Shown one piece after another: positions 9,328 through 24,587 of a DNA stretch of 24,637 nucleotides. The DNA comes from a virus, in the UHGV virus genome UHGV-0173695; one strand, given 5' to 3'. The notes below the pieces were generated by a model, which saw only the letters and a program-made list of their open reading frames with translations, was not told the origin of the DNA and made no database searches. The position numbers and the translations under genes were made by a program. Numbering within the stretch: the stretch's first letter is position 1; the number at the start of each line of letters is the position of its first letter.

Positions 9328-11079
9328 ATGATTCAGGACGCTTTTGTGCGCCAGCGTGCGCGGCAACTTTACTGGCAGGGTTATCCGCCCGCAGAAATAT
9401 CACGTCTGATGGGAATAAACCCGAACACGATTTATGCGTGGAAAAAACGTGACCAGTGGGATGAAACGCCACCCGTGCAGCGTGTCACGCAGTCCATCGA
9501 TGCGCGCCTCATCCAGCTTACTGAAAAACAGAATAAAACAGGCGGTGACTTTAAGGAAATAGACCTGCTGACCCGGCAGCTTAAAAAACTGCATGATGGC
9601 CAGCCGGATGCGACGGTCACAGGAAAGAAAGGCCGGGCGAAAAAACTCAAAAATCATTTCACGCCGGAACAGATTGCCGCACTGCGGGAAAAAATCATCA
9701 GCAGGCTGGAGTGGCATCAGCGGGGCTGGTTTGACTCCCTGACCCTTTGCAGGGAAGCCGGGATACGTAACAGGATGATCCTGAAATCCCGACAGATTGG
9801 GGCGACCTGGTATTTTGCACAGGAAGCGCTGCTGATGGCGCTGCGTGACGATGTGGCGCAACCTTACCAGCGTAACCAGATTTTTTTGTCTGCGTCGCGT
9901 CGTCAGGCGTTCCAGTTTAAAAGCATTATTCAGAAGGCCGCGGCTGAAGTTGATGTGGAGCTGAAAGGGGGCGATAAAATCATCCTCTCCAACGGCGCAG
10001 AGCTGCATTTTCTCGGCACTTCTGCTGCGTCGGCACAGTCCTATACGGGCAATTTTTATTTTGATGAATTTTTCTGGGTCAGTCGCTTTGCTGAACTGCG
10101 CAAGGTGGCTGGCGCTATGGCAACCCTCAGCGGACTGCGGCGCACCTACTTCTCCACGCCATCCACCGAAACGCACGAGGCATACGCCTACTGGAACGGC
10201 GACCGCTGGAACGAGAAAAAGGCCTCGCATAAACGCCAGCGTTTTTCTGTGGACTGGAAAACGCTGCATAACGGGCTTATCTGCCCTGACCGGACGTGGC
10301 GGCAAATTGTCACGCTGGAAGATGTGGTTAATCACGGCTGGAAACACACCGATATTGACGAAATCCGTGATGAAAACACCGAAGACGAGTTCCTCAATCT
10401 CTATATGTGTGAGTTTGTTCGCGAAGGGGAATCGGCATTTAACCTGAATATCCTGATTGGCTGCGGTGTTGACGGATACGACGACTGGAAAGACTGGAAA
10501 CCTTTTGCTCCCCGCCCGATGGGGAATCGTCCGGTATGGATTGGGTATGACGCAAACGGCAGCAGTGGCAACGGCGACAGCGGCGCTGTGTCCGTGGTGG
10601 TTCCTCCGGCTGTTCCTGGTGGCCGTTTTCGAACGGTGGAGACGCGACGCGTTCAGGGGCTGGAGTTTGAAGAACAGGCCAGAGTCATTGAAGAGTTCAC
10701 GTATCGCTACAACGTGGAACACATCGGCATTGATGTGACGGGCGGGAACGGGGAGGCTGTTTATCAGATAGTGAAACGGTTTTTCCCTGCTGCTATTCCG
10801 TACACCTTCACGCTGTCATCAAAACGGTCGCTGGTACTGAAAATGCTGCAAATAATGCGTGCCGGGCGGTGGGAATACGATCGCGCCGAACGCGAGCTGG
10901 TCGCGGCCTTTAACGCCGTGCGTAAGGTGAAAACACCGGGCGGCTTTATCACTTACGAAACGGACCGCGCGAGGGGGATCAGCCACGGCGACCTTGCGTG
11001 GGCAACCATGCTTGCTGTCATTAACGAACCGATTGGCGGCGAAGGAGAAAACGAGCGTTTCACGGTTATGGAGTTCTGA
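9328..11079 (+). CDS. P: Terminase large (ATPase) subunit P
   Basis: 583 aa; begins MIQDAFVRQRARQLYWQGYPPAEISRLMG with an N-terminal HTH as in P2 gpP; stop overlaps the Q start (TGATG). Confidence 0.95.
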   Translation: MIQDAFVRQRARQLYWQGYPPAEISRLMGINPNTIYAWKKRDQWDETPPVQRVTQSIDARLIQLTEKQNKTGGDFKEIDLLTRQLKKLHDGQPDATVTGKKGRAKKLKNHFTPEQIAALREKIISRLEWHQRGWFDSLTLCREAGIRNRMILKSRQIGATWYFAQEALLMALRDDVAQPYQRNQIFLSASRRQAFQFKSIIQKAAAEVDVELKGGDKIILSNGAELHFLGTSAASAQSYTGNFYFDEFFWVSRFAELRKVAGAMATLSGLRRTYFSTPSTETHEAYAYWNGDRWNEKKASHKRQRFSVDWKTLHNGLICPDRTWRQIVTLEDVVNHGWKHTDIDEIRDENTEDEFLNLYMCEFVREGESAFNLNILIGCGVDGYDDWKDWKPFAPRPMGNRPVWIGYDANGSSGNGDSGAVSVVVPPAVPGGRFRTVETRRVQGLEFEEQARVIEEFTYRYNVEHIGIDVTGGNGEAVYQIVKRFFPAAIPYTFTLSSKRSLVLKMLQIMRAGRWEYDRAERELVAAFNAVRKVKTPGGFITYETDRARGISHGDLAWATMLAVINEPIGGEGENERFTVMEF

Positions 11080-12125
11080 TGAGCAGAAAAAATAAAAAAG
11101 TGCGCATGAGTTCACGCATTGATCTCGCTGATGCGCTCAGGAAAGAATCGTCGCTCAGTGCATTCACATTTGATGGTCCTTATCGCCTGACCGGGCATGA
11201 TTTGCTGGACAATATGTACTGTGCTGATAACGGGCGGTGGTATGAAACCCCGGTGGACTGGTACGGTCTGGCAAGAGCTGCCCGGCAAACGTCCTGGCAT
11301 CAGTCTGCGCTTTACTTTAAGCGCAATGTATTGCTCGGTTGCTATATTCCGCACCCGCTGCTTTCCCGGCAGGATTTCTCGGCGCTGGCGCTGGACTGGT
11401 TTGTGTTCGGTAACGCATTCCTTGAGCTTCGAAGCAATATGCTCGGCGAACCGCTTAAATTACGGCACGCCCTGGCGAAATACATGCGACGCGGAAGCGA
11501 TCTTGAATCATGGTGGTATGTGCAGGATGGCAAGGACGCGTTTCAGTTTCGCCCTGGCAAAGTGTGCCACCTGATGAATCCGGATATTAACCAGGAAATC
11601 TACGGCATGCCGGAATATCTCGGCGCATTACTCTCGGCCAGCCTGTCTCATTCGGCGGACATGTTCAGAAAACTGTATTACGACAACGGATCCCACGCCG
11701 GGTGCATCATCTACATCGGTGCAGCGCAGGTAAACCGCGAAAGCATGGACTCCCTGAAAGAAACGTTACAGGGTGCGCGTGGTGGTGGTGCATTTAAAAA
11801 CGTGCTCATTCATGCGCCCAACGGTGGCAAAGAAGGTGTGCAAATTTTGCCGTTCCAGCAGATCACAGCAAAGGATGAGTTCATGAATGTTAAGGCGGCA
11901 TCCCGTGATGATGTGCTGGCTGCGCACCGCGTTCCGCCGCAACTGATGGGGGCGATGCCGGGTGAAAAAAGTGCGTTTGGTGATGTGGAGAAGGCCGCGC
12001 GGGTTTACGCAATTAACGAGCTGATGCCCGTCATGGAGGCCATGAAGCACATCAATGACTGGCTTGGCGAAGAGGTGATCCGCTTTAACCCTTACGCACT
12101 GTTAGATACCCAGCCCACATCCTGA
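11079..12125 (+). CDS. Q: Portal protein Q
   Basis: 348 aa, size as P2 gpQ; immediately follows P; followed by a hairpin and the non-coding cos-proximal region. Confidence 0.9.
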   Translation: MSRKNKKVRMSSRIDLADALRKESSLSAFTFDGPYRLTGHDLLDNMYCADNGRWYETPVDWYGLARAARQTSWHQSALYFKRNVLLGCYIPHPLLSRQDFSALALDWFVFGNAFLELRSNMLGEPLKLRHALAKYMRRGSDLESWWYVQDGKDAFQFRPGKVCHLMNPDINQEIYGMPEYLGALLSASLSHSADMFRKLYYDNGSHAGCIIYIGAAQVNRESMDSLKETLQGARGGGAFKNVLIHAPNGGKEGVQILPFQQITAKDEFMNVKAASRDDVLAAHRVPPQLMGAMPGEKSAFGDVEKAARVYAINELMPVMEAMKHINDWLGEEVIRFNPYALLDTQPTS

Positions 12126-12175: not shown

Positions 12176-12549
12176 GACTCTCCAGCTCCTGTATCAATCA
12201 GATAATTTCACGACGCCTTCCAGTTTATCGCCACCATCGACGGTCAGACTCTTACGCAATCCTACCGCGTTGACTGTATGTTCTCGCCGCCTCAGTGCGA
12301 TTTTGACGGCCTTACCTTTCCCCCCATCAAATCAAAAGCCCTCACATCTTTTTCACGCTCAGCGTGAGAAATATGGCCATTCTGTTGTGTCGCTGCGACA
12401 TCGCTCAGGGAATGCTATTTACCCCCTGAAACGCGGGCTGTTCCCCCGTCACCTGCGCGCAGAAAAAACGCGTTTTTTTGTGCACGCACGGATCCTTGAC
12501 GGATCCAGCCGCCACGCGGGCCGGAAGGGCAAAAAGTCGTTCAAAAAAA

Positions 12550-12576
12550 TTGTGCAAGTTTGTGCACTATTGTGCA
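12550..12576. repeat. Three direct repeats of TTGTGCA phased exactly 10 bp apart
   Basis: aTTGTGCAagtTTGTGCActaTTGTGCAg read directly from the sequence (copies at 12550, 12560, 12570). Confidence 0.6.
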
Positions 12577-12872
12577 GTTTGAAAATGAGCATATATTTAA
12601 CACGCGCGTTAGCTTGAGTTGACTAAAAATTTCAGTGGATTGGGCGAGGTGAAACTATAAACGCAAAATCCCAGTGACTAGCTAACAACAATCCCAGAGT
12701 GTGTTTGAATCTGGAGGGGTTAATATGAAAGATTGTTTGACAAATTTGATGTTTTCTAAATGCGTTAACCACTATGAGGCGGAGAGTGCATCTCCGCCTT
12801 TGTATGTGCGTCGGGCATGGCACGCTCGTTTCGTTTGTGCGCCCGTTCAGGGTTTCATTCTCTGATATTCAG

Positions 12873-13160
12873 TCAGCGTGGATAAATTAACTTGAATTTG
12901 AGGAAGTTTTGTTTAATCCAGTCTTTAACATTTTCCCTTCCCTGAATACCTGATGGTAAGTGTTCGTGAATCATCCATTCGACAATGAGTTTCTCTTTCA
13001 GGGAGTATGCCTTAAAGGAATTAAGCATATTTAGTACTTCATAACCCTCTTTGCGGCTAAACCGATGGCGGTCAGCAGCGGTTTTCGTGGGATCATCTCC
13101 TGGCAAAGCAGTCCAACTGTAATCGTCATAAAATAAATCGCTTCTTTTAATATCGGTCAT
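12873..13160 (-). CDS. Hypothetical protein, 95 aa, AT-rich; cargo gene at the tin/old position
   Basis: Complete ORF; weak Shine-Dalgarno (AAGGA) upstream; a stem-loop (CCACCTC...GAGGTGG) lies in the 66-bp gap from the upstream gene; no family recognised. Confidence 0.45.
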   Translation of the reverse strand: MTDIKRSDLFYDDYSWTALPGDDPTKTAADRHRFSRKEGYEVLNMLNSFKAYSLKEKLIVEWMIHEHLPSGIQGRENVKDWIKQNFLKFKLIYPR

Positions 13161-13226
13161 TTGATTATCCTTTTCAGAAGAACCACCTCTCCAACTATTG
13201 TTGAGGTGGTGAAAAAGCAGAAATCG

Positions 13227-13505
13227 TTATGCAGCTTTGAGCAGTGCGCTGCTCATTGCATAGTCGTACCCAAGCATGTATGCCTCAAAGGCGTCTTTAT
13301 GTCTGACTGTGCCAGCCTGGCTATATGGAATATTTGCCAGGAAGGAATCATCTTTAGCTTTAGGAATACCGATCATTGCGTGAAGTACACCAAGCTCGTA
13401 TGCGCAGGCAGCGCAGCGGTGGCGGCCTGTCTGTCCCTGGTTATCGGGAAGGTGTGAGTATTGGGGGTTGTATCGGTGGGAGTTTTTACAAATCTTTATA
13501 CCCAT
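13227..13505 (-). CDS. Hypothetical protein, 92 aa; cargo gene at the tin/old position
   Basis: Complete ORF with GAGGT about 9 nt upstream of the ATG; no family recognised; the overlapping plus-strand ORFs look less protein-like. Confidence 0.45.
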   Translation of the reverse strand: MGIKICKNSHRYNPQYSHLPDNQGQTGRHRCAACAYELGVLHAMIGIPKAKDDSFLANIPYSQAGTVRHKDAFEAYMLGYDYAMSSALLKAA

Positions 13506-13611
13506 ATTTGATTTACCTCAATAAAATGAGGTGTTCACCTTTACATGGGCACACGCAGAAAATACGATTCCGGCGAGCTCAAGAGGTAGATGACACCTCG
13601 ATTTCTTTGGC

Positions 13612-13642
13612 GCCCCAATAGTTACCGCTATTGGGGCGTTTT
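13612..13642 (+). terminator. Rho-independent terminator-like hairpin (plus strand)
   Basis: Perfect 10-bp stem GCCCCAATAG / CTATTGGGGC with loop ttaccg, followed by GTTTT. Confidence 0.5.
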
Positions 13643-13784
13643 CCTATGCATGACACACAAACAAAGTGGTCATATCGTGATCGATCCTACAAAATCCCAT
13701 ACAACTGTCAAGGGTATTGATCGTTTTAATCGATAGATAAATCAATATCTATCTGTTTAACAGATCGATTATTAGGGTAAACAT

Positions 13785-13807
13785 GAAAAAACACCCGTGA
13801 AGGGTGT
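13785..13807 (-). terminator. Rho-independent terminator downstream of the parR-like gene (minus strand)
   Basis: Minus-strand hairpin ACACCC-ttca-CGGGTGT followed by a T-run (plus strand AAAAAACACCCGTGAAGGGTGT), 8 bp after the ParR stop. Confidence 0.55.
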
Positions 13808-13814
13808 TTGTAGG

Positions 13815-14129
13815 TTATTCTGGGAAAAACTCCTGAATGTTCCTTTTTAACTGGCTCTTACTGTGACTGTTTTCTGTTGCAGATGTGCCAGTATGCTTGT
13901 TTCGGATGTTATTTCTTGGTGGTATTGCTTCCTCTTCCTGCCATTCAGCCAGCCAGTAAGCAAAGGCGGGATCGCTTTTAATAAGCGCCAGTCCAGCCAG
14001 AAATGCCGCGCGTTGCGCGCGGCTGCGTTCGGAGGCTGGCAGGCTGTCGAGATAATTACACGCTTCTCGTTCACTCTTGACGGCTGCTGGCTTCAGATAG
14101 AAACTTATCCGTCTGGTTGGAGTCGTCAT
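13815..14129 (-). CDS. parR: ParR-like centromere-binding protein (ribbon-helix-helix, type II partition)
   Basis: Internal start MTTPTRRISFYLKP...NYLDSLPASERSRAQRAAFLAGLALIKSDP closely resembles plasmid R1 ParR as I recall it; AGGAG Shine-Dalgarno 7 nt upstream; start 5 bp after the ParM stop. Track ORF 13815..14264 has an N-terminal extension overlapping parM. Confidence 0.75.
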   Translation of the reverse strand: MTTPTRRISFYLKPAAVKSEREACNYLDSLPASERSRAQRAAFLAGLALIKSDPAFAYWLAEWQEEEAIPPRNNIRNKHTGTSATENSHSKSQLKRNIQEFFPE

Positions 14130-14133
14130 TGGT

Positions 14134-15093
14134 TTACTCCTTGTCCATTGCGTACAGCCCATTAACCAGAGCAAACTGTGGCACCCCGTCCGCGATGAAA
14201 GTCGCATTAACTCCGCAGGCTTCGCGGATAGCGGGTGCCACAATCTCCGCCCCGCCACCGACAACCATCACCCGCCCGTAACCCGAAAACCCCGCCAGCG
14301 CGCGGATCACTCGTTGTTTCAGTGTTTCTTCCTTTTCACGAATAACCGCCATCAGGCTGGCGTAATGCGCGTCATTGTGGATGTGCTGGCGCAACCAGGC
14401 TTCATCATGGCGATGTTCGATAATGGTATTGGCGATGTGGTGACTGGTGCGCATACCGTTAGTGGCCATCACCGACAGTACGGCATCGGCCATCAGAGAA
14501 ACGCCTACGTGTGGATCGCAAAACACCTGGCTGATACCTGCCAGTTGCCCCTGAACCTTTGCCACATCCAGCGTGGTTCCGCCCAAATCCACAATCAGCA
14601 GGGATTCAAACGGACTCATGTCAGCCAGTGCCTTAAAGCCAGCCGGAATGGATTCAGGCATAACCCGCACGTTACGGATAGTGAATGCTTCGCCGTTCTG
14701 GTACTCCACCGGGCGCATAACGTTCGCTTTTTTGCGGTTGATGTTGGCCATGTCCGGCTGTGCGTTTGTGTCGAAATATTCGCTCAGTGGCAGGGTGACA
14801 ACCACATCCACTTCCTGTGGTGTGATGCCTGATTTGACCAGCGCGTGATGAATGGCAATGACATTCACATCGCTGTACTGGTATTGCGTGTCGGTCGTCT
14901 GGACAAAGCGATCGCTGACCGGATCAAAACCATAGCGCACGCCATCAAGCATGTAGTTCGCGGGCTGCGTGCCACCGAACGGCGCAGACCATTCCGACTT
15001 GAAGCTGTTTGGGCTGATGGCGTTGCGGCGTTCGCCGTTCTCAGTCCATGCCAGCTTGATGTTGGTGGAGCCGTCATCGATACAAATTTTCAT
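14134..15093 (-). CDS. parM: ParM/StbA-family actin-like ATPase (type II partition motor)
   Basis: 319 aa; N-terminus MKICIDDGSTNIKLAW (R1 ParM begins MLVFIDDGSTNIKLQW as I recall); further matches ISPNSFK, YSDVNVIAIHHAL, DLGGTTLD, VMVVGGGAE. Confidence 0.9.
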   Translation of the reverse strand: MKICIDDGSTNIKLAWTENGERRNAISPNSFKSEWSAPFGGTQPANYMLDGVRYGFDPVSDRFVQTTDTQYQYSDVNVIAIHHALVKSGITPQEVDVVVTLPLSEYFDTNAQPDMANINRKKANVMRPVEYQNGEAFTIRNVRVMPESIPAGFKALADMSPFESLLIVDLGGTTLDVAKVQGQLAGISQVFCDPHVGVSLMADAVLSVMATNGMRTSHHIANTIIEHRHDEAWLRQHIHNDAHYASLMAVIREKEETLKQRVIRALAGFSGYGRVMVVGGGAEIVAPAIREACGVNATFIADGVPQFALVNGLYAMDKE

Positions 15094-15120: not shown

Positions 15121-15240
15121 ATCGTTTACGGGATTCTGAAATCCCGTTTTTGCCTGTTTTATGCGCGCTTCATATATCGCGGCGCGTTTTTTGCTCATTT
15201 ACGGGATTTGTGAATCCCGTTTCTGTCTGTTTTTTGTTTC
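15121..15240. repeat. parC-like region: two imperfect direct repeats of about 36 bp, each with the palindrome ACGGGATT-N4-AATCCCGT, upstream of parM
   Basis: Palindromes at 15128-15147 and 15201-15220, 73 bp apart, each followed by a T-rich tail (TTTTTGCCTGTTTT / TTTCTGTCTGTTTT). The first lies between the A stop and the parM start; the second lies within the last codons of A. Confidence 0.5.
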
Positions 15241-17992
15241 CACTGGTCAGGCCACCCCGCAGCAGGTCTGCTTTGCGGCGGGCGCGTTCAGTGGTTTCAC
15301 TGATTCTCTGTGCGTGCTCTGCGTCGCGGATGGCGCGCAGCATGTCAGAAAGCACGGTAACGGGTGTTTTCATGGTGTTCTGGTCTTGCTGAAGTGTGGA
15401 TGCCAGGCGTGCGGCGGCTTCGGGGTCTGATGTCCCCAGCTGTTCCAGATAGCTGGCGACCGGGTTATGGCGGATCTCCGTACTGCTTACGCCGTGGTTA
15501 CGGCTCAGGCGCTGCCAGAGCTGCGTGATCCGGCTGTCCGGTCGGGTATCCGGTTTGCGTACAATTTCAAATCCCTGCGGTGCAATGTTGCTGCCGTCAA
15601 CGTACAGACTGCCGCCCCGTAACAGGTGCTGCATCTGCTGTTCACCGATATGCAGGCCGAGAGATTCAGCAGACTCCCGCCATTCTTTAGCGAGTAGTTC
15701 GTGGTTATCAGGCAAAGGCCGCTGCTGTTTGCGGCTCTGTGTCCAGCTCTGCATTTCATCACGGCTGTTTTTTGCCTGTTTGTCACGAAGCGAACGCATC
15801 AGCGCCCGGCGTTCGTGCCGTTTCAGTGAGCGCATCCATTCGTTCACTTCAACGCCGTCAGGGAGCTGCGGCCACGGTGCTGGCCGTTCTTCCGGCTGTT
15901 CTGTCCCGTTGTTGTCCGTTTCCTGTACACGGGGACAGTTATTGCCACGAGTCCAAGGGGCGGCAGGGCCGCCCTGAAGGTCAAAACCATTTTCGTGGGC
16001 GTTGTCTTCTGGTTCTGGTTTACGTCTTACCAACTTCCAGTTATCCGGATGCGTGCACACACGGGAGGATTCCCCGATGAGTGGTGACCAGATCCCGTAA
16101 ATCTGTACGCTCTGTTCGCCGTAATCGTTCAGCTCATCTGCGAGGTCGTAGGCGGTGCGAATCAGGTAGTCCTTGCGTGGAACAAGCACGCCACCCTGTT
16201 TTTCAATGTAGGTGGCAAAACACCCGGCATCGGCGGCAGCGAGTACCGCATCCATTGCATCATCTTTCAGCCGTTGCGGGCCTTCCGGATTGCGTGCCAT
16301 CTGGCTGGCAAGGCGGCGCAGTTCACGCCACACCTGACGGGAGGGGATGCCAAAGAACTGGAACTGACGGACCCGGTGAAGGCGCGCCCAGCCGATGGCG
16401 CGCTCCACGCTCTCGGCCATTGATTTTCCGGTTTCGTGGTCAACGCGTGGCTTGCCCGTTTTCGGGTCGATGCCATCCACGGCGCGGCTGTCCAGGTTCT
16501 TTCCGATGTAGGTAGCGATGTAGCTGGTTGGTGTGCCTTTTGAGCCGTCGACATACTCCGCCTTAAAACGCGGAGTTATGTCATCGCCCAGCTCGTGGCG
16601 GTCCTCCTGAATGGCAATATCGCAGACGTGGGACACGATGGTTTCAATCTCGTCCGGATGTGCAAAGACCATCATATGCCAGTGCACAGTGCCGTCATGG
16701 TGAGGCTCCACCGTGCGGATGCCATACCAGCGCAGGCCGTCGCGGTTCAGTTTTTTGCGGACCGCCGCAAAAAACGTGTTAACCAGGTAATCGCTGGAGT
16801 CGCGCATGGTGGCCCCGTTCCATTTGGGGTTCGGATGACCGTTCTCCGTTGTTGCGTGGTATTTTGACGGGCAGGTGACGGTCAGAAACACCGCTCTGTC
16901 GCCACGGGCTTCGGCCAGAAGTTCCAGTCCCTTCATGGTGGCCATCATTTCTGCCTTACGGTGAACCGGGTTACTTACTCCCGCGTAATACACCGTCTCG
17001 AGATCAATCGTGAACCCGTCTTCATTTTCCAGCGTGAAACTTTTCAGGAAATCGCGTGTTTTCTCGCGCTGTGCGCGAAACTCGCTTAACGCGTCCTGGC
17101 TCAGATAGGGCGATGTTTTTCTGGAAACCAGACAGGCGGCGCGGAGTTGTTCTTCCCGCCACTCGCAACGTAACAGCCACAGTTTGCGTTTCCACCATTC
17201 CGCACAGGTCAGGCGAAGGATTGCGCCCGGCAGCAGCTCCGTGTCTGGTTCGTTCCTCCGGTCTTTGTCTGTTGTCAGTGCGTCATAATGTGGAGGCATG
17301 GCGTGCAGGTGTAACGCCATGCGGGCCAGCATCTGATACGCCTTCAGCGTTACATCCATGGTCAGCTCGCCATCGGTCGCGCCAAAGCCATCGCAGAGTT
17401 TTTCGAAGGTGCTGCTGAACATCGCCGCCGTCATGGTGGCCAGCGTCTGTATCTGGTGTTTGTTGAGCTGCGGCAGGTAAAGCAAATCGTCCAGGCGTTC
17501 GCGTCCGGCAAGGGAGCGATAACCCGGTGTCAGCCAGCGGTGATCGGTGCGGTCCAGACGTTCGAATATTTTGCGCAGGGTTCCGCGTGCATAGCGTTCC
17601 GCCTGCCAGCTCTTTTTGCCTTTCCGGCGATCGGCTTCCTGTTTTTTGCGCAGGAAGGAGAGGTGGCGAATAAGCGGATCGCGCAGATAGGACGGCAGCA
17701 GGCGCAGCGAGGCCATGGCTTCATCCACTGCGCCGCGTGCCTGTTTTCTGGCGTCTCCTGCCAGTGTGATGGTTTTGTCCTGTTTTTCCTGTGCGTCCAG
17801 GCTTTTATTAATCAGGTTGCCCAGCGGCGTGGCGGAGAACGCCGCATCAGCCATTTCCTTGCGGCGCTCGTTCTCTGCCCGGTAGGCATCCAGCCAGGAG
17901 GAAAGCGCGGATTCAGGAGCGGGGATCCCCGTTCCTTCACGCCCCACTGCGTGGCGCGGTTGTTGCCAGTCCCTGATGTACTCTGCCGTCAT
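15170..17992 (-). CDS. A: Replication initiation protein A (rolling-circle endonuclease), P2 gpA family
   Basis: 940 aa; contains HWHMMVFAH and TSYIATYIGKNLD (HUH-type and catalytic-Tyr motifs of gpA-like initiators). Longer than the roughly 761 aa recalled for P2 gpA. Confidence 0.9.
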   Translation of the reverse strand: MTAEYIRDWQQPRHAVGREGTGIPAPESALSSWLDAYRAENERRKEMADAAFSATPLGNLINKSLDAQEKQDKTITLAGDARKQARGAVDEAMASLRLLPSYLRDPLIRHLSFLRKKQEADRRKGKKSWQAERYARGTLRKIFERLDRTDHRWLTPGYRSLAGRERLDDLLYLPQLNKHQIQTLATMTAAMFSSTFEKLCDGFGATDGELTMDVTLKAYQMLARMALHLHAMPPHYDALTTDKDRRNEPDTELLPGAILRLTCAEWWKRKLWLLRCEWREEQLRAACLVSRKTSPYLSQDALSEFRAQREKTRDFLKSFTLENEDGFTIDLETVYYAGVSNPVHRKAEMMATMKGLELLAEARGDRAVFLTVTCPSKYHATTENGHPNPKWNGATMRDSSDYLVNTFFAAVRKKLNRDGLRWYGIRTVEPHHDGTVHWHMMVFAHPDEIETIVSHVCDIAIQEDRHELGDDITPRFKAEYVDGSKGTPTSYIATYIGKNLDSRAVDGIDPKTGKPRVDHETGKSMAESVERAIGWARLHRVRQFQFFGIPSRQVWRELRRLASQMARNPEGPQRLKDDAMDAVLAAADAGCFATYIEKQGGVLVPRKDYLIRTAYDLADELNDYGEQSVQIYGIWSPLIGESSRVCTHPDNWKLVRRKPEPEDNAHENGFDLQGGPAAPWTRGNNCPRVQETDNNGTEQPEERPAPWPQLPDGVEVNEWMRSLKRHERRALMRSLRDKQAKNSRDEMQSWTQSRKQQRPLPDNHELLAKEWRESAESLGLHIGEQQMQHLLRGGSLYVDGSNIAPQGFEIVRKPDTRPDSRITQLWQRLSRNHGVSSTEIRHNPVASYLEQLGTSDPEAAARLASTLQQDQNTMKTPVTVLSDMLRAIRDAEHAQRISETTERARRKADLLRGGLTSGNKKQTETGFTNPVNEQKTRRDI

Positions 17993-20266: not shown

Positions 20267-20508
20267 GCTCTGGCTTCCTTCAGTAGCTGGTTAAACATGT
20301 TGGTAAGTGGATTGCCGCACCCGAACGGCATCGGGTTTATCTGGTAAGAAAAGCGACCGCCTGTTCTGCGCTCTTTTCTTATGACTGAACCGCTGCGCCA
20401 GAGTCGGCGTAACTCCGCATTAATGGCTGTGGTTGGGGTATTCAGTGCTGCGGCGATTTCTCCACCGCTACACCCCGGATTGGCGGCGATGTAGTCCAGA
20501 ATGGTCAT
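20263..20508 (-). CDS. Putative winged-helix DNA-binding protein, 81 aa
   Basis: N-terminus MTILDYIAANPGCSGGEIAAALNTPTTAINAELRRLWRSGSV resembles a winged-HTH fold; overlaps neighbours at both ends. Confidence 0.5.
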   Translation of the reverse strand: MTILDYIAANPGCSGGEIAAALNTPTTAINAELRRLWRSGSVIRKERRTGGRFSYQINPMPFGCGNPLTNMFNQLLKEARA

Positions 20509-20708
20509 CTGCGTGACTCCTGTACCTGTCTGATAAGATTCACCTGCACCACGTTGGTGGCGCAGAAGTAAGTGTCGTCAGTGAGATAAATGTGATGCGC
20601 GTCAGGTTGCGAACGGTGACGGTCGAGCGTTTTAATCAGCCGTTCGTCAACTTCGTATTCACGTCCTCTGGAAGTGAAACGAACGACGGTAAATCGCTTA
20701 ATTGCCAT
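20505..20708 (-). CDS. Hypothetical early protein, 67 aa
   Basis: AAGGAGG Shine-Dalgarno 4-5 nt upstream of the ATG. Confidence 0.5.
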   Translation of the reverse strand: MAIKRFTVVRFTSRGREYEVDERLIKTLDRHRSQPDAHHIYLTDDTYFCATNVVQVNLIRQVQESRR

Positions 20709-20794
20709 TGCGCCTCCTTGGCGTGTGCGAATACCTCCGCGAATGCGGATTGTTTTTACATTTTCTTATCTAACCTGTGGTTTTATTTGCTCTG

Positions 20795-20908
20795 TTATTC
20801 GCCAGTGAAAAAGCGTTCAATCTTTTTTACTGAATGAATAATTCGCATAATCCCAATGGCGCAGGCCACCGAAATAATCAGAACAAGCCATGAGATAAAT
20901 ATACTCAT
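20795..20908 (-). CDS. Candidate small membrane peptide, 37 aa (MSIFISWLVLIISVACAIGIMRIIHSVKKIERFFTGE)
   Basis: ORF below the track size cutoff, found by hand translation; ATG overlaps the stop of the upstream 81-aa gene (ATGA); one predicted TM helix then a basic tail. Confidence 0.3.
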   Translation of the reverse strand: MSIFISWLVLIISVACAIGIMRIIHSVKKIERFFTGE

Positions 20909-21150
20909 GCAATATTCCCCAGCTTATACGGTTCAATATGTTCCCCGCATTCTGCGGCACAGATCAGCTCGGAAAGTTCGTTAAGTGCATCCAGATCATC
21001 AGCGTAAAAAGCCACGTCATACAGACTCCGGATTGCCCTGGTCAATGAGTCACGGGCTGCACGTTCAGCATGAGCGCCTGATGCACTTAAGCGAAAATAA
21101 AATCGTTCAAGTGCTTTGTTAATGAGAGTTTTATATTCTTTGCCCATCAC
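20905..21150 (-). CDS. Hypothetical early protein, 81 aa
   Basis: Complete ORF in the early operon orientation. Confidence 0.45.
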   Translation of the reverse strand: MMGKEYKTLINKALERFYFRLSASGAHAERAARDSLTRAIRSLYDVAFYADDLDALNELSELICAAECGEHIEPYKLGNIA

Positions 21151-21158
21151 AACGCCCT

Positions 21159-21437
21159 TTAATCTGCTTTCTTAATTTCAGCTTCTGAATCCATACAAAT
21201 AATTTCGATATAGGGTTCATCGCTATTAGCCTGGCGCGCTTTTTCAGCTTCGTTAATGGCTTCGCGAACGGTCTGGTACGGAAGCTCCACGATCAGTTGT
21301 GCGTTGTTCGCATAAACGTGAGTAACTGCTTTTTTTTCTGCCTGGGCTACAGCATCAATAGCTGATGCACGTAATAACAGTTCACCGCGAAAATCAATAA
21401 AACGGATAAATACACCTTGTGCATGCTCTTTGGTCAT
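21159..21437 (-). CDS. Hypothetical early protein, 92 aa
   Basis: Internal start MTKEHAQG at 21437, just after the upstream stop; the track ORF start at 21497 would overlap the upstream gene by 50 nt. Confidence 0.45.
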   Translation of the reverse strand: MTKEHAQGVFIRFIDFRGELLLRASAIDAVAQAEKKAVTHVYANNAQLIVELPYQTVREAINEAEKARQANSDEPYIEIICMDSEAEIKKAD

Positions 21438-21447
21438 AAAGCACCTG

Positions 21448-21798
21448 TTATAAATCAGCCTGTTTAATAAAACTTTGCCCGCGAAGCAGACGATCAACCG
21501 TGCGAAGTGCTTCGTATAATGTGAAATCCTGCCCGAATTGATTGTCGCCGCAGCTCAATGCAAAAATGCGGTTTCCGGTAAACGGATTGCGTGGGCATTT
21601 GTGGACCACGATTCCAGCTTTCTCAATCAGCCAGGCATGCTCGCCGATTTGTTTTACTGGGTAGCCATCCGGCGTTGCGTGTGTTTCGCTCAGGCTGTAG
21701 CGAGAGTTGCTACGTGATGCACTGGTAGCGAAACGGTTAGCATGGCGTTCCGCACCGTTGCGGAAGCGCTGCTGTGAAGAATTGCGCTGTAGTTTCAT
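21448..21798 (-). CDS. Hypothetical early protein, 116 aa
   Basis: Complete ORF with a single possible ATG start. Confidence 0.45.
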   Translation of the reverse strand: MKLQRNSSQQRFRNGAERHANRFATSASRSNSRYSLSETHATPDGYPVKQIGEHAWLIEKAGIVVHKCPRNPFTGNRIFALSCGDNQFGQDFTLYEALRTVDRLLRGQSFIKQADL

Positions 21799-21933
21799 AT
21801 TAAAACTCTGTACCTTCGGTAAGGTGTACTCGTGTCACCTTGTATTGATTTGTGGTATTTTTTGTGTGTCTAGGACTTGGACTGGCCGGTTCAGGTCCTG
21901 GCTTATGTTTAATTAAATTGTTTAGAGGTTTTC

Positions 21934-22125
21934 ATGTCAGAAGATAAAAAAGTTGTTAATTTGTTGAGTGACCTTAGTGCTGCTCTGGATAACATTAACC
22001 CTCCTAGGGTAAAAACGACGGGTGATAAAGACGCATTAAACGCAGAGATTCATATATTACTGGCGTTAGTAACTGACAAAATTCAGCGTAAATACCCACC
22101 TGTCACACAACTGGTTGATTTTTAA
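21934..22125 (+). CDS. Hypothetical small protein, 63 aa, in an AT-rich island, opposite in orientation to the early operon
   Basis: AGAGG Shine-Dalgarno 5 nt upstream of the ATG; convergent with the 140-aa minus-strand ORF; a GC-rich hairpin lies between the two stops. Confidence 0.35.
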   Translation: MSEDKKVVNLLSDLSAALDNINPPRVKTTGDKDALNAEIHILLALVTDKIQRKYPPVTQLVDF

Positions 22126-22131
22126 TTTGAT

Positions 22132-22554
22132 TTATGCCGGGCTGCTCCCGGCATCTTCTAGCTGCCATAATGTCTCGTCACCTGATAGAGCAAAACGAAA
22201 TGAGTGAAGTATATCCTCCCGAGAGAAGCTCACGGCTACAGCTGCGGGAAAGTCAAATATAATCCCACCTTCATTTTTAAAACGATTACGCAATTGATAG
22301 GCTATCGGTTTGATTTGCGCAGGAAGAGTATCTACATCTCTTCCATTGACAACAGAATCTTTGTTTTCCAGTACTGATTTAGCGATTAGATATAGATGCC
22401 AGTAACTGGTTACAATTGTTACTCCTGTGATGTGTCGTAAATTAATTGCAATTCGTCCGTTATTATGTTTTTCCGCAAGGTATTTCAGGTTATCAATTAA
22501 TGCTTGGTCATTTTTTGAAATAGTTATTGTGAAATCTGACGTGTTTGTTTTCAT
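22132..22554 (-). CDS. Hypothetical protein, 140 aa, AT-rich; possible moron downstream of cox
   Basis: Internal start MKTNTSDF at 22554, 4 bp after the cox-like stop. The track ORF 22132..22797 has a low-complexity N-terminal extension overlapping the cox-like frame. The sequence is visibly AT-rich compared with the flanking phage genes. Confidence 0.5.
   Translation of the reverse strand: MKTNTSDFTITISKNDQALIDNLKYLAEKHNNGRIAINLRHITGVTIVTSYWHLYLIAKSVLENKDSVVNGRDVDTLPAQIKPIAYQLRNRFKNEGGIIFDFPAAVAVSFSREDILHSFRFALSGDETLWQLEDAGSSPA
22136..22152. terminator. GC hairpin GCCGGG-ctgct-CCCGGC between convergent ORFs (possible bidirectional terminator)
   Basis: Perfect 6-bp inverted repeat 11 bp after the plus-strand ORF stop, overlapping the last codons of the minus-strand ORF. 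Confidence 0.4.
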
Positions 22555-22558
22555 ACGA

Positions 22559-23080
22559 TTAGTTGCCTCTGTTGTTTCTGAGTTGGTCCAGTTTTGAGCT
22601 TCTGCCTGTATAAACTCGCTTACCGTTAATGGTCTGGCAGTCTTCTTTATTAGCTGGAGAGAACTTCCTTTTCTGGCGGTCATACGTCCAGTAACTTTTC
22701 CAGTTGTGCCATTCTGGGGGCTCGTGCTCTGGTAGCTCATCAGCCAACTTGTCCCACTCTTTGGCGTTAAACCACCATACTCCGTCTGAGTTTTCATCTT
22801 CCGGGTTTGTGCGCGTCTTGTGTCCCGGCATTTGACCGCGATGAATGGCTACGCGCAGTGCAGATTTTGTTAGCCCAATATATGCCGCGCCTTTTTCCAG
22901 AGAGCAAAGCCCGGCGATCGGACCATCCAGCCGTAAAGTCGCTCCTTTTTTGTAGGAACGCTTTTTCTTGTTTTCTTCGTGTTCGTCGTCGTTGGCGGCA
23001 TCAATGGATCCGCTGAGTGCGTCACTTTCCTGAAGTGGTTGGTGGTCAGATAACTCTTTATCGGCAATGAAGTCCCGCAT
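22559..23080 (-). CDS. cox: Cox/Apl-like excisionase-type DNA-binding regulator, extended form (173 aa)
   Basis: First gene of the early operon, divergent from C. Central region AYIGLTKSALRVAIHRGQMPGHK...GVWWFNAKEW parallels the P2 Cox pattern (HTH then an aromatic-rich segment) as I recall it. Has an acidic N-terminal extension and a Trp-rich C-terminal extension absent from the 91-aa P2 Cox. Confidence 0.6.
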   Translation of the reverse strand: MRDFIADKELSDHQPLQESDALSGSIDAANDDEHEENKKKRSYKKGATLRLDGPIAGLCSLEKGAAYIGLTKSALRVAIHRGQMPGHKTRTNPEDENSDGVWWFNAKEWDKLADELPEHEPPEWHNWKSYWTYDRQKRKFSPANKEDCQTINGKRVYTGRSSKLDQLRNNRGN

Positions 23081-23183
23081 TTGTTATCCTCTTGCGTTGG
23101 TGCGCTTGTTGCGCCTTGTGATGGTTTGTTTTGGTTTGTTTTCTTCACCCTGTGGTGAAGAGTAAAAAGAGGATACTCATCGT
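23081..23183. promoter_or_regulatory. Immunity switch region with divergent promoters (Pe leftward, Pc rightward) and operator-like repeats
   Basis: Tandem direct repeat GGTTTGTTTT x2 (23123-23142) followed by inverted repeat TTCACC-ctgt-GGTGAA (23144-23159), between divergent cox and C. P2 C repressor is known to bind direct repeats flanking the early promoter. Confidence 0.5.
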
Positions 23184-23525
23184 ATGGTGAACATGTCAAG
23201 AGATTACGCCAAAAAACTAAAGGCGATCAGAAATGCGGAAAAACTTACACAATCTCAGTTTTCGCAAGTAACGGGGGTTTCTGTAGGGACTATAGGAAAT
23301 TATGAGTCTGGATATAAACCTGCGCGCATTGAGGTTGTAGAAAAAGTAATCCAAGTCGAGCGATTCGAAAAATACACTATGTGGATACTTCACGACAAAA
23401 CATTTCCCGCTGCCGGGCAGGTTGCTCCGGCTCTCTCTCTTGATGGCTCTATTCAGTCGGAGGGCGATCAGGTTTCAATCGGTATTACCCAAAAATCACC
23501 CCGATCAGGCCGCAATGTTGGCTGA
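23184..23525 (+). CDS. C: Immunity repressor, P2 C-type
   Basis: 113 aa; KLKAIRNAEKLTQSQFSQVTGVSVGTIGNYESG...FEKYTMWIL...GQVAPAL parallels P2 C as I recall it. Start could be 23184 or the in-frame ATG at 23193. Confidence 0.85.
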   Translation: MVNMSRDYAKKLKAIRNAEKLTQSQFSQVTGVSVGTIGNYESGYKPARIEVVEKVIQVERFEKYTMWILHDKTFPAAGQVAPALSLDGSIQSEGDQVSIGITQKSPRSGRNVG

Positions 23526-23594
23526 CTCTACACATTGAGCGAATTACATATCGCAAGGAGTGTTTAGTTAATTTATCCGTTAGAGGGGCTAATC

Positions 23595-24587
23595 ATGTCG
23601 ATTAAGCAACTCAAAGACGGACGTTATCAGGTCGATGTCAGACCGCAGGGGGCGGAAGGAAAGCGGATTCGAAAAATCTTTGCCCTGAAATCAAAGGCTC
23701 AGGAGTTTGAGAAGTATGTGTTACAGAACTTTCATGACAAGCCATGGCAGGCTAAGCCAGCTGATCAGCGGCGATTATCAGAGCTGCTTGATGCGTGGTG
23801 GATGCTTGATGGGCGTAATCAGGCTTACGGGGATAGCTACAGGGTTAGGCTAGGGAAGGTTGTTCGTGAAATGGGAGATCCTCGCGCCAGTCAGATGACG
23901 CGAAAATTTATGCTTGAATATCGGTCAGAGAAATTACAGGCCGGATTAATGCCGTCCAGTATTAATCGTGACTTATGCGTACTGTCTACCATGTTCACGG
24001 TGCTGATTGAAGCTGAGGTCTTTCACAACGCGAACCCTGTACGCGGTATACGAAAACTGAAAGTTCAGAACACAGAGATGGCCTTTCTTTCTGATGATGA
24101 GATTGAACGGCTTCTTGAGCGACTGGAGGGTGATGCGCGTCGTGTTGCCATTCTGTGTCTTTCTACTGGTGCCCGATGGAGTGAAGCATCGGAACTACGT
24201 GGAGAGCATATCGTTGGCAACCGGGTGACGTTCTTTAACACCAAAAACGGAAAATCCCGTTCGGTTCCTGTGGCGGATTCGGTCGTGCCTCTGATTAAAA
24301 CCCGTCGAACGGGGTTATTGTATCAGGTTGATTATCTGAAGTTCCGGGAGATTCTTCAGGAGGTGAAACCGGATTTGCCGAAGGGGCAGGCTACGCATGT
24401 CATGCGTCATACATTTGCCACACACTTTATGATGAATGGCGGAAATATTGTTACGTTGCAACGAATCCTGGGGCACGCAACGATTCAGCAAACAATGACG
24501 TACGCTCATTTTTCGCCGGACTTCTTACAGGACGCGATCAACTTTAATCCGCTGGCTGAAAGTGTCCATAAACTGTCCATCGATTAG
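23595..24587 (+). CDS. int: Tyrosine integrase (P2 Int family)
   Basis: 330 aa; C-terminal catalytic region HVMRHTFATHFMMNGGNIVTLQRILGHATIQQTMTYAHF (R-H-x-x-R...Y); located after C and at the prophage edge as in P2. Confidence 0.95.
   Translation: MSIKQLKDGRYQVDVRPQGAEGKRIRKIFALKSKAQEFEKYVLQNFHDKPWQAKPADQRRLSELLDAWWMLDGRNQAYGDSYRVRLGKVVREMGDPRASQMTRKFMLEYRSEKLQAGLMPSSINRDLCVLSTMFTVLIEAEVFHNANPVRGIRKLKVQNTEMAFLSDDEIERLLERLEGDARRVAILCLSTGARWSEASELRGEHIVGNRVTFFNTKNGKSRSVPVADSVVPLIKTRRTGLLYQVDYLKFREILQEVKPDLPKGQATHVMRHTFATHFMMNGGNIVTLQRILGHATIQQTMTYAHFSPDFLQDAINFNPLAESVHKLSID

Follow-up and report, generated by a model that had tools for sequence, protein, structure and literature searches.

A hypervariable slot behind cox in a P2-like Escherichia coli prophage holds an exchangeable pair of genes

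The UHGV-0173695 window (the whole 24,637-nucleotide stretch of DNA analysed here) is a P2-like E. coli prophage, with int and the repressor gene C on the plus strand and cox, followed by the early operon, on the minus strand. Between cox and the gene for a DUF4761 protein, the first conserved early gene, lies a hypervariable slot, and in this prophage the slot is filled by an exchangeable cassette of two convergent genes encoding proteins of 140 and 63 amino acids (ORF140 and ORF63; Table 1). Both are real genes, and the island that they form is one allele of a two-gene cassette family rather than a one-off insertion. The reading that we tentatively favour, at a little under an even chance and on the strength of the sequence, is that the two products may form a cognate antagonistic pair, with ORF140 made early in lytic growth, ORF63 made in the lysogen and the balance between them flipped by convergent transcription.

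Table 1 Features of the cassette and its flanks (positions in the window)
Feature	Position	Strand	Basis or role
DUF4761 gene	21448-21798	-	Early gene that follows and bounds the slot on the right; Pfam DUF4761, E=3.6e-70
Variable AT-rich cassette	21816-22558		blastn breakpoints against loci L020, L023, L002, L028 and L003; lowest GC
14-mer TTTGTGGTATTTTT with extended -10-like TGGTATTTT (21853-21861)	21849-21862	+	Putative ORF63 promoter, conserved among loci
5' stem-loop at predicted ORF63 mRNA start	21868-21902	+	Folding energy; U-rich stretch follows; flagged as terminator-like
ORF63 (63 aa), small reverse-oriented gene	21934-22125	+	Shine-Dalgarno AGAGG at 21924-21928, 5 nt upstream of ATG
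ORF140 (140 aa), co-oriented early-operon gene	22132-22554	-	ATG at 22554; annotated in RefSeq
GC hairpin, core GCCGGG-ctgct-CCCGGC (22136-22152)	22134-22154	+	8-bp stem; candidate weak ORF63 terminator
cox (173 aa), Cox-family DNA-binding protein	22559-23080	-	First early-operon gene and left anchor of the slot

The slot after cox and its occupants

An AT-rich island downstream of cox was noted in a preliminary description of this DNA, and GC and codon-usage profiles along the window bear this out. The segment 21800-22560 has a GC content of 38.5%, against a window mean of 53.1% (sd 5.0, 761-nt windows); 0.18% of the 761-nt windows are as GC-poor as this, and the minimum, 38.2%, falls at 21903-22663. 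GC3 is similarly atypical, at 0.305 in ORF140 and 0.312 in ORF63 compared with 0.529 in cox and 0.504 in the DUF4761 gene. A scan of 20500-23600 against Rfam found no known RNA.

The island is bounded by the cox stop codon on one side and the ribosome-binding region of the DUF4761 gene on the other. The cox product matches Pfam PF10743 (Phage_Cox; 31.2 bits against a cutoff of 27.5, E=1.9e-7) and PHROG 23196 (E=1e-116), and carries the RefSeq name 'Cox family DNA-binding protein'. When the window is aligned by blastn with island-less phages whose Cox proteins are 94-95% identical, homology breaks off precisely at the stop codon of cox (22559) and picks up again at around 21790-21815. Alignment with related P2-like prophages, which had been proposed as a check, thus identifies the island as an indel or replacement with breakpoints at those two boundaries, rather than as a segment of typical composition conserved throughout the relatives. 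Replication gene A (15170-17992) is about 4 kb away, and the A-portal slot of the same prophage is occupied by a ParM/StbB module.

Among 5426 complete E. coli genomes, 270 carry the island and 1421 the DUF4761 flank. Hosts of the W-type allele, the one present in the window, include UTI89, JJ1886 and other O25b:H4-ST131 isolates among these 270, so that any phenotype of the cassette would concern clinically important strains. In the RefSeq relatives L003-L005 the DUF4761 gene follows cox or apl by 14-37 nt, and in L020 and L023 a short filler ORF separates cox from DUF4761. Across 36 IMG/VR loci with the same Cox type, at least eight different slot fillings are seen. Alternative cargo proteins of 78, 103, 151, 155, 162 and 212 aa carry no informative annotation and match PADLOC models at chance level only, and guilt by association therefore gave no function.

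The architecture itself recurs. With four Cox types (loci L002, L006, L008, L028, L039, L041, L045, L047 and L048), cox is directly followed by a forward gene whose 3' end a convergent partner abuts or overlaps. We define the cassette family by an ORF140-family gene that immediately follows the cox of a P2-like prophage and meets a convergent partner at its 3' end, and this is the arrangement found in the window. Homology searches returned near-identical E. coli copies first, and exhaustive HMMER searching added two true distant relatives; a further match, to an FG-GAP repeat protein, was judged spurious.

The description of the island as a horizontally acquired moron survives in part. Its patchy distribution and atypical GC content fit, as does ORF63, a reverse-oriented gene with a promoter-like motif and a hairpin; ORF140, by contrast, is an early-operon gene, and homology searches found no donor outside the P2-like prophages. 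On its composition and patchy distribution, the island may have been acquired horizontally.

The two genes and their predicted transcription signals

The 140-aa minus-strand frame and the convergent 63-aa plus-strand frame with its good Shine-Dalgarno sequence had both been picked out beforehand, and both frames, with the AGAGG motif before ORF63, are confirmed. Opposite orientation within the early operon had been claimed for the island: ORF63 does run against the operon, whereas ORF140 runs with it, starting 4 nt past the cox stop with AGAGG 11 nt upstream of its ATG. We have used the 140-aa RefSeq form of ORF140; the list of open reading frames also offers a longer, 221-aa frame overlapping cox. 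ORF140 probably has no promoter of its own.

The ORF140 family comprises about 44 clusters, all from Enterobacteriaceae and all labelled 'hypothetical'. An AF2 model built with the family alignment (pLDDT 66, pTM 0.61) is alpha/beta, and ORF140 is predicted to be a soluble alpha/beta protein; no match to the predicted structure was found in fold libraries. A weak match to DUF1408 (E=0.007) was absent from all 36 relatives and is for that reason taken as chance. Like ORF63, the ORF140 protein (pI 6.4) is mildly acidic, and in this the two products are unlike typical nuclease toxins.

Conservation of ORF63, on which the preliminary description had made its case depend, is found: the protein is kept in eight diverged alleles with 19-44% identity, in which M1 and K53-Y54-P55 are invariant, and tblastn between alleles gives E values of about 1e-12. 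The product is predicted to be helical, and its family profile yields only weak matches, to designed helical bundles, among PDB sequences.

The stop codons of the two genes are 6 nt apart (22126-22131). The hairpin, previously placed between them, is present with the sequence described but does not lie between the ORFs; it lies 8-10 nt past the ORF63 stop and encodes the last six codons of ORF140 (AGSSPA). Its folding energy is -13.7 kcal/mol as plus-strand RNA and -15.1 kcal/mol as minus-strand RNA, and perfect all-GC 6-bp stems occur at six sites in the window against 1.6 +/- 1.6 in Markov simulations. Equivalent hairpins lie past the small gene in other alleles, some followed by canonical T-tracts, on the small-gene strand only. 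In the W allele the U-tract on the ORF63 side is poor; on the early-operon strand there is none, and early transcripts should therefore pass the hairpin. If ORF63 transcription ends at this hairpin, within the 3' end of ORF140, the two mRNAs would converge and their 3' ends overlap.

Upstream of ORF63 lies the 14-mer TTTGTGGTATTTTT, the exact sequence of which is present in 21 of the 48 loci fetched, as a single copy and on the reverse-gene strand. In loci with mapped ORFs it stands 60-75 nt upstream of the reverse gene, including reverse genes unrelated to ORF63 (L027, L042, L045, L048), and it is absent from every island-less locus among the 48. TGNTATTTT occurs three times in the window against 0.62 expected. 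A consensus promoter scan did not flag the site, because it has no -35 element. Transcription is predicted to start near 21867-21869, which would place the stem-loop of Table 1 at the 5' end of the message. This structure is marked as plus-strand RNA (-21.5 kcal/mol, z -3.1) and not as minus-strand RNA (-7.8 kcal/mol, z -0.6), and the L002/L045 type and the Salmonella L006 type have stem-loops of different sequence at the corresponding place. We infer that ORF63 may form a separate transcription unit running in the 'lysogenic' direction; its promoter, its terminator and the 3' overlap are predictions.

A Rho-site-like stretch was also considered in the early mRNA, which is untranslated for some 330 nt where it is antisense to the small gene. 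Its C/G ratio is 1.33 here and only 0.91-1.18 in other alleles; the C-rich, G-poor bias is thus not consistent, and the candidate was set aside.

Pairing of the two families and possible functions

Both families are small and uncharacterised, occur only in P2-like prophages of the Enterobacteriaceae and only in the post-cox position, and diverge in parallel. The ORF63 family is seen only together with the ORF140 family; in the loci examined every ORF140-family gene has a convergent partner, and the empty slots retain no gene of either family. Pairwise identities of the large and small proteins across eight alleles are correlated (r=0.92, Spearman 0.45, Mantel p=2e-4), although tight linkage alone can produce both co-divergence and co-swapping.

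According to the antagonistic-pair reading, ORF140 and cox would share transcription from the early promoter Pe, so that ORF140 would be made only on infection or induction. The ORF63 message would start at the extended -10 promoter, carry the 5' stem-loop and end at the hairpin in the 3' end of ORF140. With Pe repressed in the lysogen, only the small helical ORF63 protein would be made, and it would restrain any ORF140 activity arising from an incoming relative or from leaky early transcription, of the kind reported for the P2-like lysogen of Salmonella BTP5 (PMC7067206). Once Pe fires, strong transcription through ORF140 would meet the weak ORF63 promoter head-on, and transcriptional interference together with antisense pairing would silence ORF63, freeing ORF140 early in lytic growth. 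The roles of effector and antidote could be assigned either way, as toxin and antidote or as exclusion factor and self-escape.

The chief alternative, a possible if rather doubtful one, is that the slot holds two independent accessory genes. ORF63 would then be a free-standing moron (acting, for instance, in cytoplasmic superinfection exclusion, defence or host modulation) and ORF140 an unrelated early accessory (for example, anti-defence or host takeover) serving as a 'frame', with its variable C-terminal tail arising incidentally from read-through into the cargo's terminator region. One large-protein core (82-93% identical) does occur with several reverse genes that are unrelated (60, 78, 155 and 162 aa) but stand behind one and the same promoter and 5'UTR module, which is the pattern of an exchangeable-cargo hotspot; a core shared by four unrelated partners argues against an obligate fit between core and partner, and suits a frame with free cargo. 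Moreover, the last six ORF140 codons are simply the hairpin, and ORF140, being small, acidic, fast-evolving and first after cox, resembles many anti-defence genes. Against independence, a small partner of the ORF63 family (S family) is retained in each of seven deeply diverged alleles, whose large proteins are 17-34% identical, and the lack of partnerless large genes and of half-emptied slots would be unexpected were the two functionally independent. In the L002-type frame, furthermore, what is exchanged is the entire reverse ORF together with the final ~25 codons of the large gene, and so the type of partner goes with the C-terminal tail that the large protein carries.

It is unlikely that the cassette is instead a lysis-lysogeny regulatory accessory at the cII/pE site, in which the reverse promoter would oppose the early operon (by antisense or interference, with possible read-through to C and int) and ORF140 or ORF63 would modulate this promoter or the Cox/C switch. 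The site immediately behind cox/apl is that of cII in phage 186, and no cII equivalent exists in P2-type switches (PMC3448106). A -35 is missing from the reverse promoter, and several alleles have an inverted repeat, GCCGGG-N11-CCCGGC, spanning the -35 region, an arrangement seen at activator-dependent promoters; the W-type hairpin, being a poor terminator, could also permit read-through antisense to ORF140 and cox. The W allele, however, lacks the upstream inverted repeat, and the direct repeats on either side of the Pe -10 (possible C operators) have no convincing counterparts near the ORF63 promoter. Both proteins are acidic and neither has a DNA-binding domain detectable with Pfam; canonical terminators past the small gene in other alleles would block read-through, and some close relatives, presumably viable, have an empty slot.

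That the pair belongs to a known toxin-antitoxin or anti-phage defence family missed by sequence searches is improbable. Prophage hotspots are rich in such systems (PMC9122126, PMC13586616), and two-gene modules with a small second protein are typical of them. Searches of Pfam, PHROGs, PADLOC and NCBIfam gave no informative family for ORF140 or ORF63 (with no match in PADLOC-DB v2 at E <= 1), no similarity links either product to known families of toxins, antitoxins, defence or anti-defence proteins (Pfam, NCBIfam, PADLOC, PDB and fold searches), and no database, fold library or RNA library gives a function to either product. The same Pfam, NCBIfam, PADLOC, PDB and fold searches found no homology to type II toxin-antitoxin systems, and the two neighbouring genes are convergent, whereas the type II layout has them adjacent and co-oriented in one autoregulated operon. 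A literature search by accession or locus tag found no report mentioning these loci.

Hardly any credence can be given to the idea that the ORFs are chance frames in AT-rich, non-functional filler, for despite the lack of functional annotation and of a clear synonymous excess within the allele (five non-synonymous and three synonymous changes in ORF140 and two of each in ORF63 across 13 island copies, too few to show selection), the protein sequences of both ORFs are conserved between alleles that can no longer be aligned as DNA, with start, Shine-Dalgarno sequence, length and arrangement kept, and their exact sequences occur on more than 400 and more than 1000 contigs.

P2-like prophages are a main model of how temperate phages carry and exchange accessory functions such as defence, and the post-cox slot offers a fixed frame (forward early gene, reverse gene, common reverse promoter and 5'UTR) with wholly uncharacterised cargo. 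The cargo would make compact, easy-to-clone candidates (0.7-1.3 kb) for new functions in phage-phage and phage-host conflict, and the cassette would suit the study of regulation by convergent transcription. A broader proposal, itself speculative, is that the slot is a further hotspot of P2-like phages and that its cargo may constitute a new class of mutually antagonistic two-component modules, with one component produced by the lysogen and the other within the opening minutes of lytic growth (an exclusion factor with its self-escape, or an early effector with its lysogen antidote), specificity residing in the exchangeable C-terminal tail and head-on transcription acting as the switch. Should ORF140 and ORF63 prove to be independent small accessory genes, the island would be an ordinary moron.

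Comparison with known systems

Under the phage 'moron' concept (Hendrix/Juhala), and beside the P2 lysogenic-conversion genes old, tin and Z/fun, the island looks familiar in several respects: it is present in some relatives only, has a lower GC content than its flanks and sits between two genes of an operon, and ORF63 has a candidate promoter and terminator and is oriented for possible expression from a repressed prophage. It differs in having two genes, of which ORF140 is a member of the early lytic operon without an evident promoter of its own, and in its location. The classical P2 moron sites are A-Q ('old/tin') and G-FI ('Z/fun') (PMC3573123; bioRxiv 10.1101/2024.10.15.618418), and the island is at neither, being between cox and DUF4761.

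Defence hotspots of P2-like phages have been mapped to A-portal, to the tail genes, to int-att and to the stretch separating a tail gene from cI (Rousset 2022 PMC9122126; Moura de Sousa 2026 PMC13586616; Egorov 2024 preprint), and a coarse 'integrase-primase' interval holds 8% of P2 defence systems (PMC13586616). The word cox appears in none of these three surveys; the slot is new in that it is absent from the hotspot surveys compared, and its contents are of an already known kind, the cargo of a phage accessory hotspot. Like those hotspots, it is a short locus between two conserved genes, with very high cargo turnover and modular swapping at conserved junctions, and different cargo turns up between near-identical flanks. 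Unlike them, it carries far smaller cargo (0.7 kb) in a fixed forward/reverse architecture, with no match to a PADLOC model.

The Bacillus subtilis modules txpA/RatA and bsrG/SR4 pair a small hydrophobic toxin peptide with a non-coding RNA antitoxin. They too are prophage-borne, convergent units; a 3' overlap is predicted for the cassette, and its reverse unit could lower the level of the forward mRNA. The forward product of the cassette is instead a 140-aa protein predicted to be soluble, and the reverse unit encodes a conserved 63-aa protein, which sets the pair apart from type I toxin-antitoxin systems, with their small hydrophobic toxin and non-coding antisense RNA.

In coliphage 186, cII lies directly after apl in the early operon, and pE fires back towards the repressor side. 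The cassette likewise places a gene right after cox, adjoining a putative promoter that points to the repressor side and lacks a -35. It differs in showing no sequence or predicted-structure similarity to CII (no HTH or CII-like match for the acidic ORF140 in Pfam, PHROGs or family searches), in that its reverse transcript would encode a protein of its own and in several alleles ends at a canonical terminator, and in being dispensable in close relatives.

The sieB/esc locus of lambda and P22 encodes a membrane protein, SieB, and esc is an internal in-frame product of sieB. There is no homology to the cassette, which consists of two separate convergent genes. The likeness is one of logic: a factor expressed from the prophage is combined with a product that is expressed early from the same locus and shields the development of the phage itself.

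Composition and limits of the segment after cox

A P2-like E. coli prophage has its immunity and early region at the right end of the window. The same region is carried at 99% identity by E. coli UTI89, where the prophage adjoins dmsA and RefSeq labels both ORF140 and ORF63 as hypothetical proteins. Direct repeats TCACCCTGTGGTGAA (23145-23159) and TCATCGTATGGTGAA (23177-23191) lie 32 bp apart on either side of the predicted early promoter -10 and are candidate operators for repressor C.

Features of the island and the adjoining immunity region
Feature	Position	Strand	Remarks
14-mer TTTGTGGTATTTTT, promoter-like	21849-21862	+	contains extended -10-like TGGTATTTT; 72-85 nt upstream of ORF63 start
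5' stem-loop	21868-21902	+	immediately past the 14-mer
ORF63	21934-22125	+	63 aa; AGAGG 5 nt ahead of ATG
GC hairpin GCCGGG-ctgct-CCCGGC	22136-22152		dG -13.7 kcal/mol (+ RNA), -15.1 (- RNA)
ORF140	22132-22554	-	140 aa; start 4 nt past cox stop
cox	22559-23080	-	173-aa Cox-family gene, opens early operon; Pfam Phage_Cox, PHROG 23196
Early promoter (predicted)	23199-23170	-	TTGACA-18-TATCCT
HTH repressor C	23184-23525	+	
Integrase	23595-24587	+	

A preliminary description had noted an AT-rich island after cox, with two convergent genes separated by a GC hairpin, and proposed a horizontally acquired moron. The composition is as described: GC content over the 761 bases is 38.5%, where the window averages 53%; only 0.18% of windows of that size are as GC-poor, and the window minimum falls within the island. 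Third-position GC is 0.31 in both ORF140 and ORF63, compared with 0.53 for cox and 0.50 for the next early gene. The arrangement of the genes needs some revision. Their stop codons are separated by 6 nt and the hairpin exists, but it is not strictly intergenic, since the last six ORF140 residues (AGSSPA) are encoded there; likewise, only ORF63 opposes the early operon, ORF140 being co-directional with it. An imperfect 22-nt direct repeat (77% identity) on either side of ORF63, CTGGCTTATGTTTAATTAAATT (21898-21919) and CTGGTTGATTTTTAATTTGATT (22111-22132), could be an insertion trace of the small gene or a chance occurrence in AT-rich DNA.

Of 5426 complete E. coli genomes, 270 have the island and 1421 match the flanking DUF4761 gene. 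In comparisons with phages that have a 94-95% identical Cox and no island (L020, L023), homology ends precisely at the stop codon of cox (22559) and restarts at 21790-21815, shortly ahead of the DUF4761 start. The variable segment is therefore 21816-22558, nearly matching the limits first proposed. In RefSeq relatives (L003-L005) the gap from cox or apl to DUF4761 is 14-37 nt. Slot fillings vary widely among 36 IMG/VR loci with the Cox type of the window: the same cassette is present in 11, and other fillings include a 68-aa two-TM protein, a 64-aa ORF, several more two-gene cassettes of like design and unrelated forward/reverse pairs. It is firmly supported that the island is an accessory cassette, exchangeable and sited in a hypervariable slot that follows cox, with two genuine genes travelling together; the original observation is confirmed and its interpretation supported in part.

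In the island-less relatives L020 (2040-2246), L023 (2041-2247), L037 and L038, the 68-aa protein, which has two predicted hydrophobic helices, follows cox on the same strand as the early operon, and a similar hydrophobic 58-aa TM ORF lies between cox and the cassette in L006. Beyond DUF4761, a further moderately AT-rich stretch (20717-21477, 42% GC) contains a 93-aa ORF (PHROG 3800), DUF4754 and a 37-aa hydrophobic ORF (20795-20908), none with an assigned function and all kept in relatives.

Two narrow protein families

ORF140 and ORF63 are real genes that represent new, narrow families. Word-based searches matched near-identical E. coli copies alone, whilst an exhaustive HMMER search of 1.8 billion representatives recovered two true relatives (31-32% identity) and a profile search about 44 clusters, all from E. 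coli, Salmonella or Citrobacter, all annotated as hypothetical and none with a Pfam domain. Family members share a gene order (int, repressor, cox, ORF140-family gene, convergent gene, remaining early operon) in which the convergent partner abuts or overlaps the 3' end of the ORF140-family gene, and the arrangement occurs with Cox proteins of 93, 95, 135 and 173 aa.

Eight alleles have small partners that align from end to end at 19-44% identity, with an invariant M1 and a K-Y-P motif close to the C-terminus, and tblastn detects allele-to-allele matches down to 1e-12 where DNA alignment is lost; the 63-aa ORF is thus conserved. Pairwise identities of large and small proteins across alleles are correlated (r=0.92, Spearman 0.45, Mantel p=2e-4). 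ORF140 and ORF63 are mildly acidic proteins. Sequence searches of Pfam, PHROGs, NCBIfam, PADLOC and PDB returned either nothing or chance-level matches for the two families, Rfam gave no match across the island region and the alternative slot cargo proteins are likewise without annotation; no function is readable from databases for either family.

Regulatory signals, module exchange and possible function

The exact 14-mer TTTGTGGTATTTTT occurs as a single copy on the reverse-gene strand in 21 of the 48 fetched loci, 60-75 nt upstream of the reverse gene where ORFs were mapped, and is missing from every island-less locus among them. Loci with reverse genes unrelated to ORF63 have it too (78-aa and 155-aa partners; L042). 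Several alleles, the one in the window excepted, have an inverted repeat GCCGGG-N11-CCCGGC over the -35 position. The T-run past the -10-like TA (21857-21865) varies by 0-2 T among 13 island copies, a length polymorphism that sits in the putative ORF63 promoter or discriminator region.

The 5' stem-loop is stable on plus-strand RNA only (-21.5 kcal/mol, z -3.1 vs -7.8, z -0.6), as would be expected of a functional plus-strand transcript element, and stem-loops of unrelated sequence occupy the same relative position in the L002/L045-type and Salmonella-type cassettes. The window has six places with perfect GC-only hairpins like that at the gene junction, where 1.6 hits would be expected. A hairpin lies 3' of every small gene, inside the last part of the large gene's coding sequence, and its T-tract, where present (L028, L039), is on the small-gene strand only. 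Given the poor U-tract of the allele studied here (AUCUUCU), termination may be leaky.

Judged from sequence, ORF140 would be an early-operon gene and ORF63 an independent, lysogenic-direction unit converging on it. The reading we prefer, albeit tentatively, is that they form a cognate antagonistic pair whose balance is decided by whichever promoter is active. With the early promoter Pe repressed, ORF63 would be produced; with Pe active, ORF63 would be silenced by head-on transcription together with antisense overlap, leaving ORF140 to act. The effector could be either partner. Leaky early transcription has been reported in a P2-like lysogen, Salmonella BTP5 (PMC7067206), offering a rationale for an antidote expressed in the lysogen.

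When the L002-type cassette is compared with relatives having a 78-, 155- or 162-aa partner, DNA homology extends to about codon 110 of the large gene, breaks there, and is regained at the reverse gene's SD and 5'UTR. The unit that is swapped therefore comprises the large protein's C-terminal tail together with the entire reverse ORF, whilst the N-terminal core, like the reverse promoter/5'UTR, serves as an unchanging frame. That a single ORF140 core is found with unrelated partners favours the main rival, a possible though less probable one, in which the two genes work independently, ORF140 belonging to the frame and the reverse gene being free cargo; against this, the ORF63-family partner is kept in seven deeply diverged alleles. 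A third, improbable rival, a regulatory role resembling 186 cII/pE, agrees with the position and promoter architecture but not with the protein properties or with the canonical terminators of other alleles.

Tandem second cassettes of like design are present in Salmonella P2-like prophages (L006 4766-5804, L008 4001-4937). Their forward genes (259 and 225 aa) have a C-terminal domain in common and pair with a convergent 103-aa protein, and one of the two forward proteins (P0016) resembles ORF140 in its N-terminal domain. A conserved promoter/5'UTR element of ~100 nt precedes the reverse gene in both L006 cassettes and the second L008 cassette.

Comparison with known P2 hotspots

The old/tin hotspot of the window, between portal (11079-12125) and replication gene A (15170-17992), encodes a 319-aa ParM/StbA actin-like segregation ATPase and a StbB-like plasmid stability protein (13815-15093, minus strand), which suggests that the prophage may persist as a plasmid too. 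DNA nearby is low in GC (12530-13290 and 13449-14209), and a 41%-GC stretch beside these genes holds unannotated ORFs of 95 aa (12873-13160) and 92 aa (13227-13505). In L006, Rfam scores C4 antisense RNA at 83.5 bits and isrK at 68.5 bits shortly upstream of gene A (7795-7996), which makes this an antisense immunity element of the P1/P7 type within a P2-like genome.

Moron and defence hotspots described in P2 are A-portal (old/tin), the tail genes (Z/fun), int-att, tail gene-cI and a coarse 'integrase-primase' interval that accounts for 8% of P2 defence systems (PMC3573123, PMC9122126, bioRxiv 10.1101/2024.10.15.618418, PMC13586616). Phage accessory hotspots whose cargo is moron-like are therefore well known as a kind. 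The word cox is unmentioned in three of these papers (PMC9122126, bioRxiv 10.1101/2024.10.15.618418, PMC13586616). The slot after cox, its fixed forward/reverse architecture and the two protein families appear to be undescribed so far.
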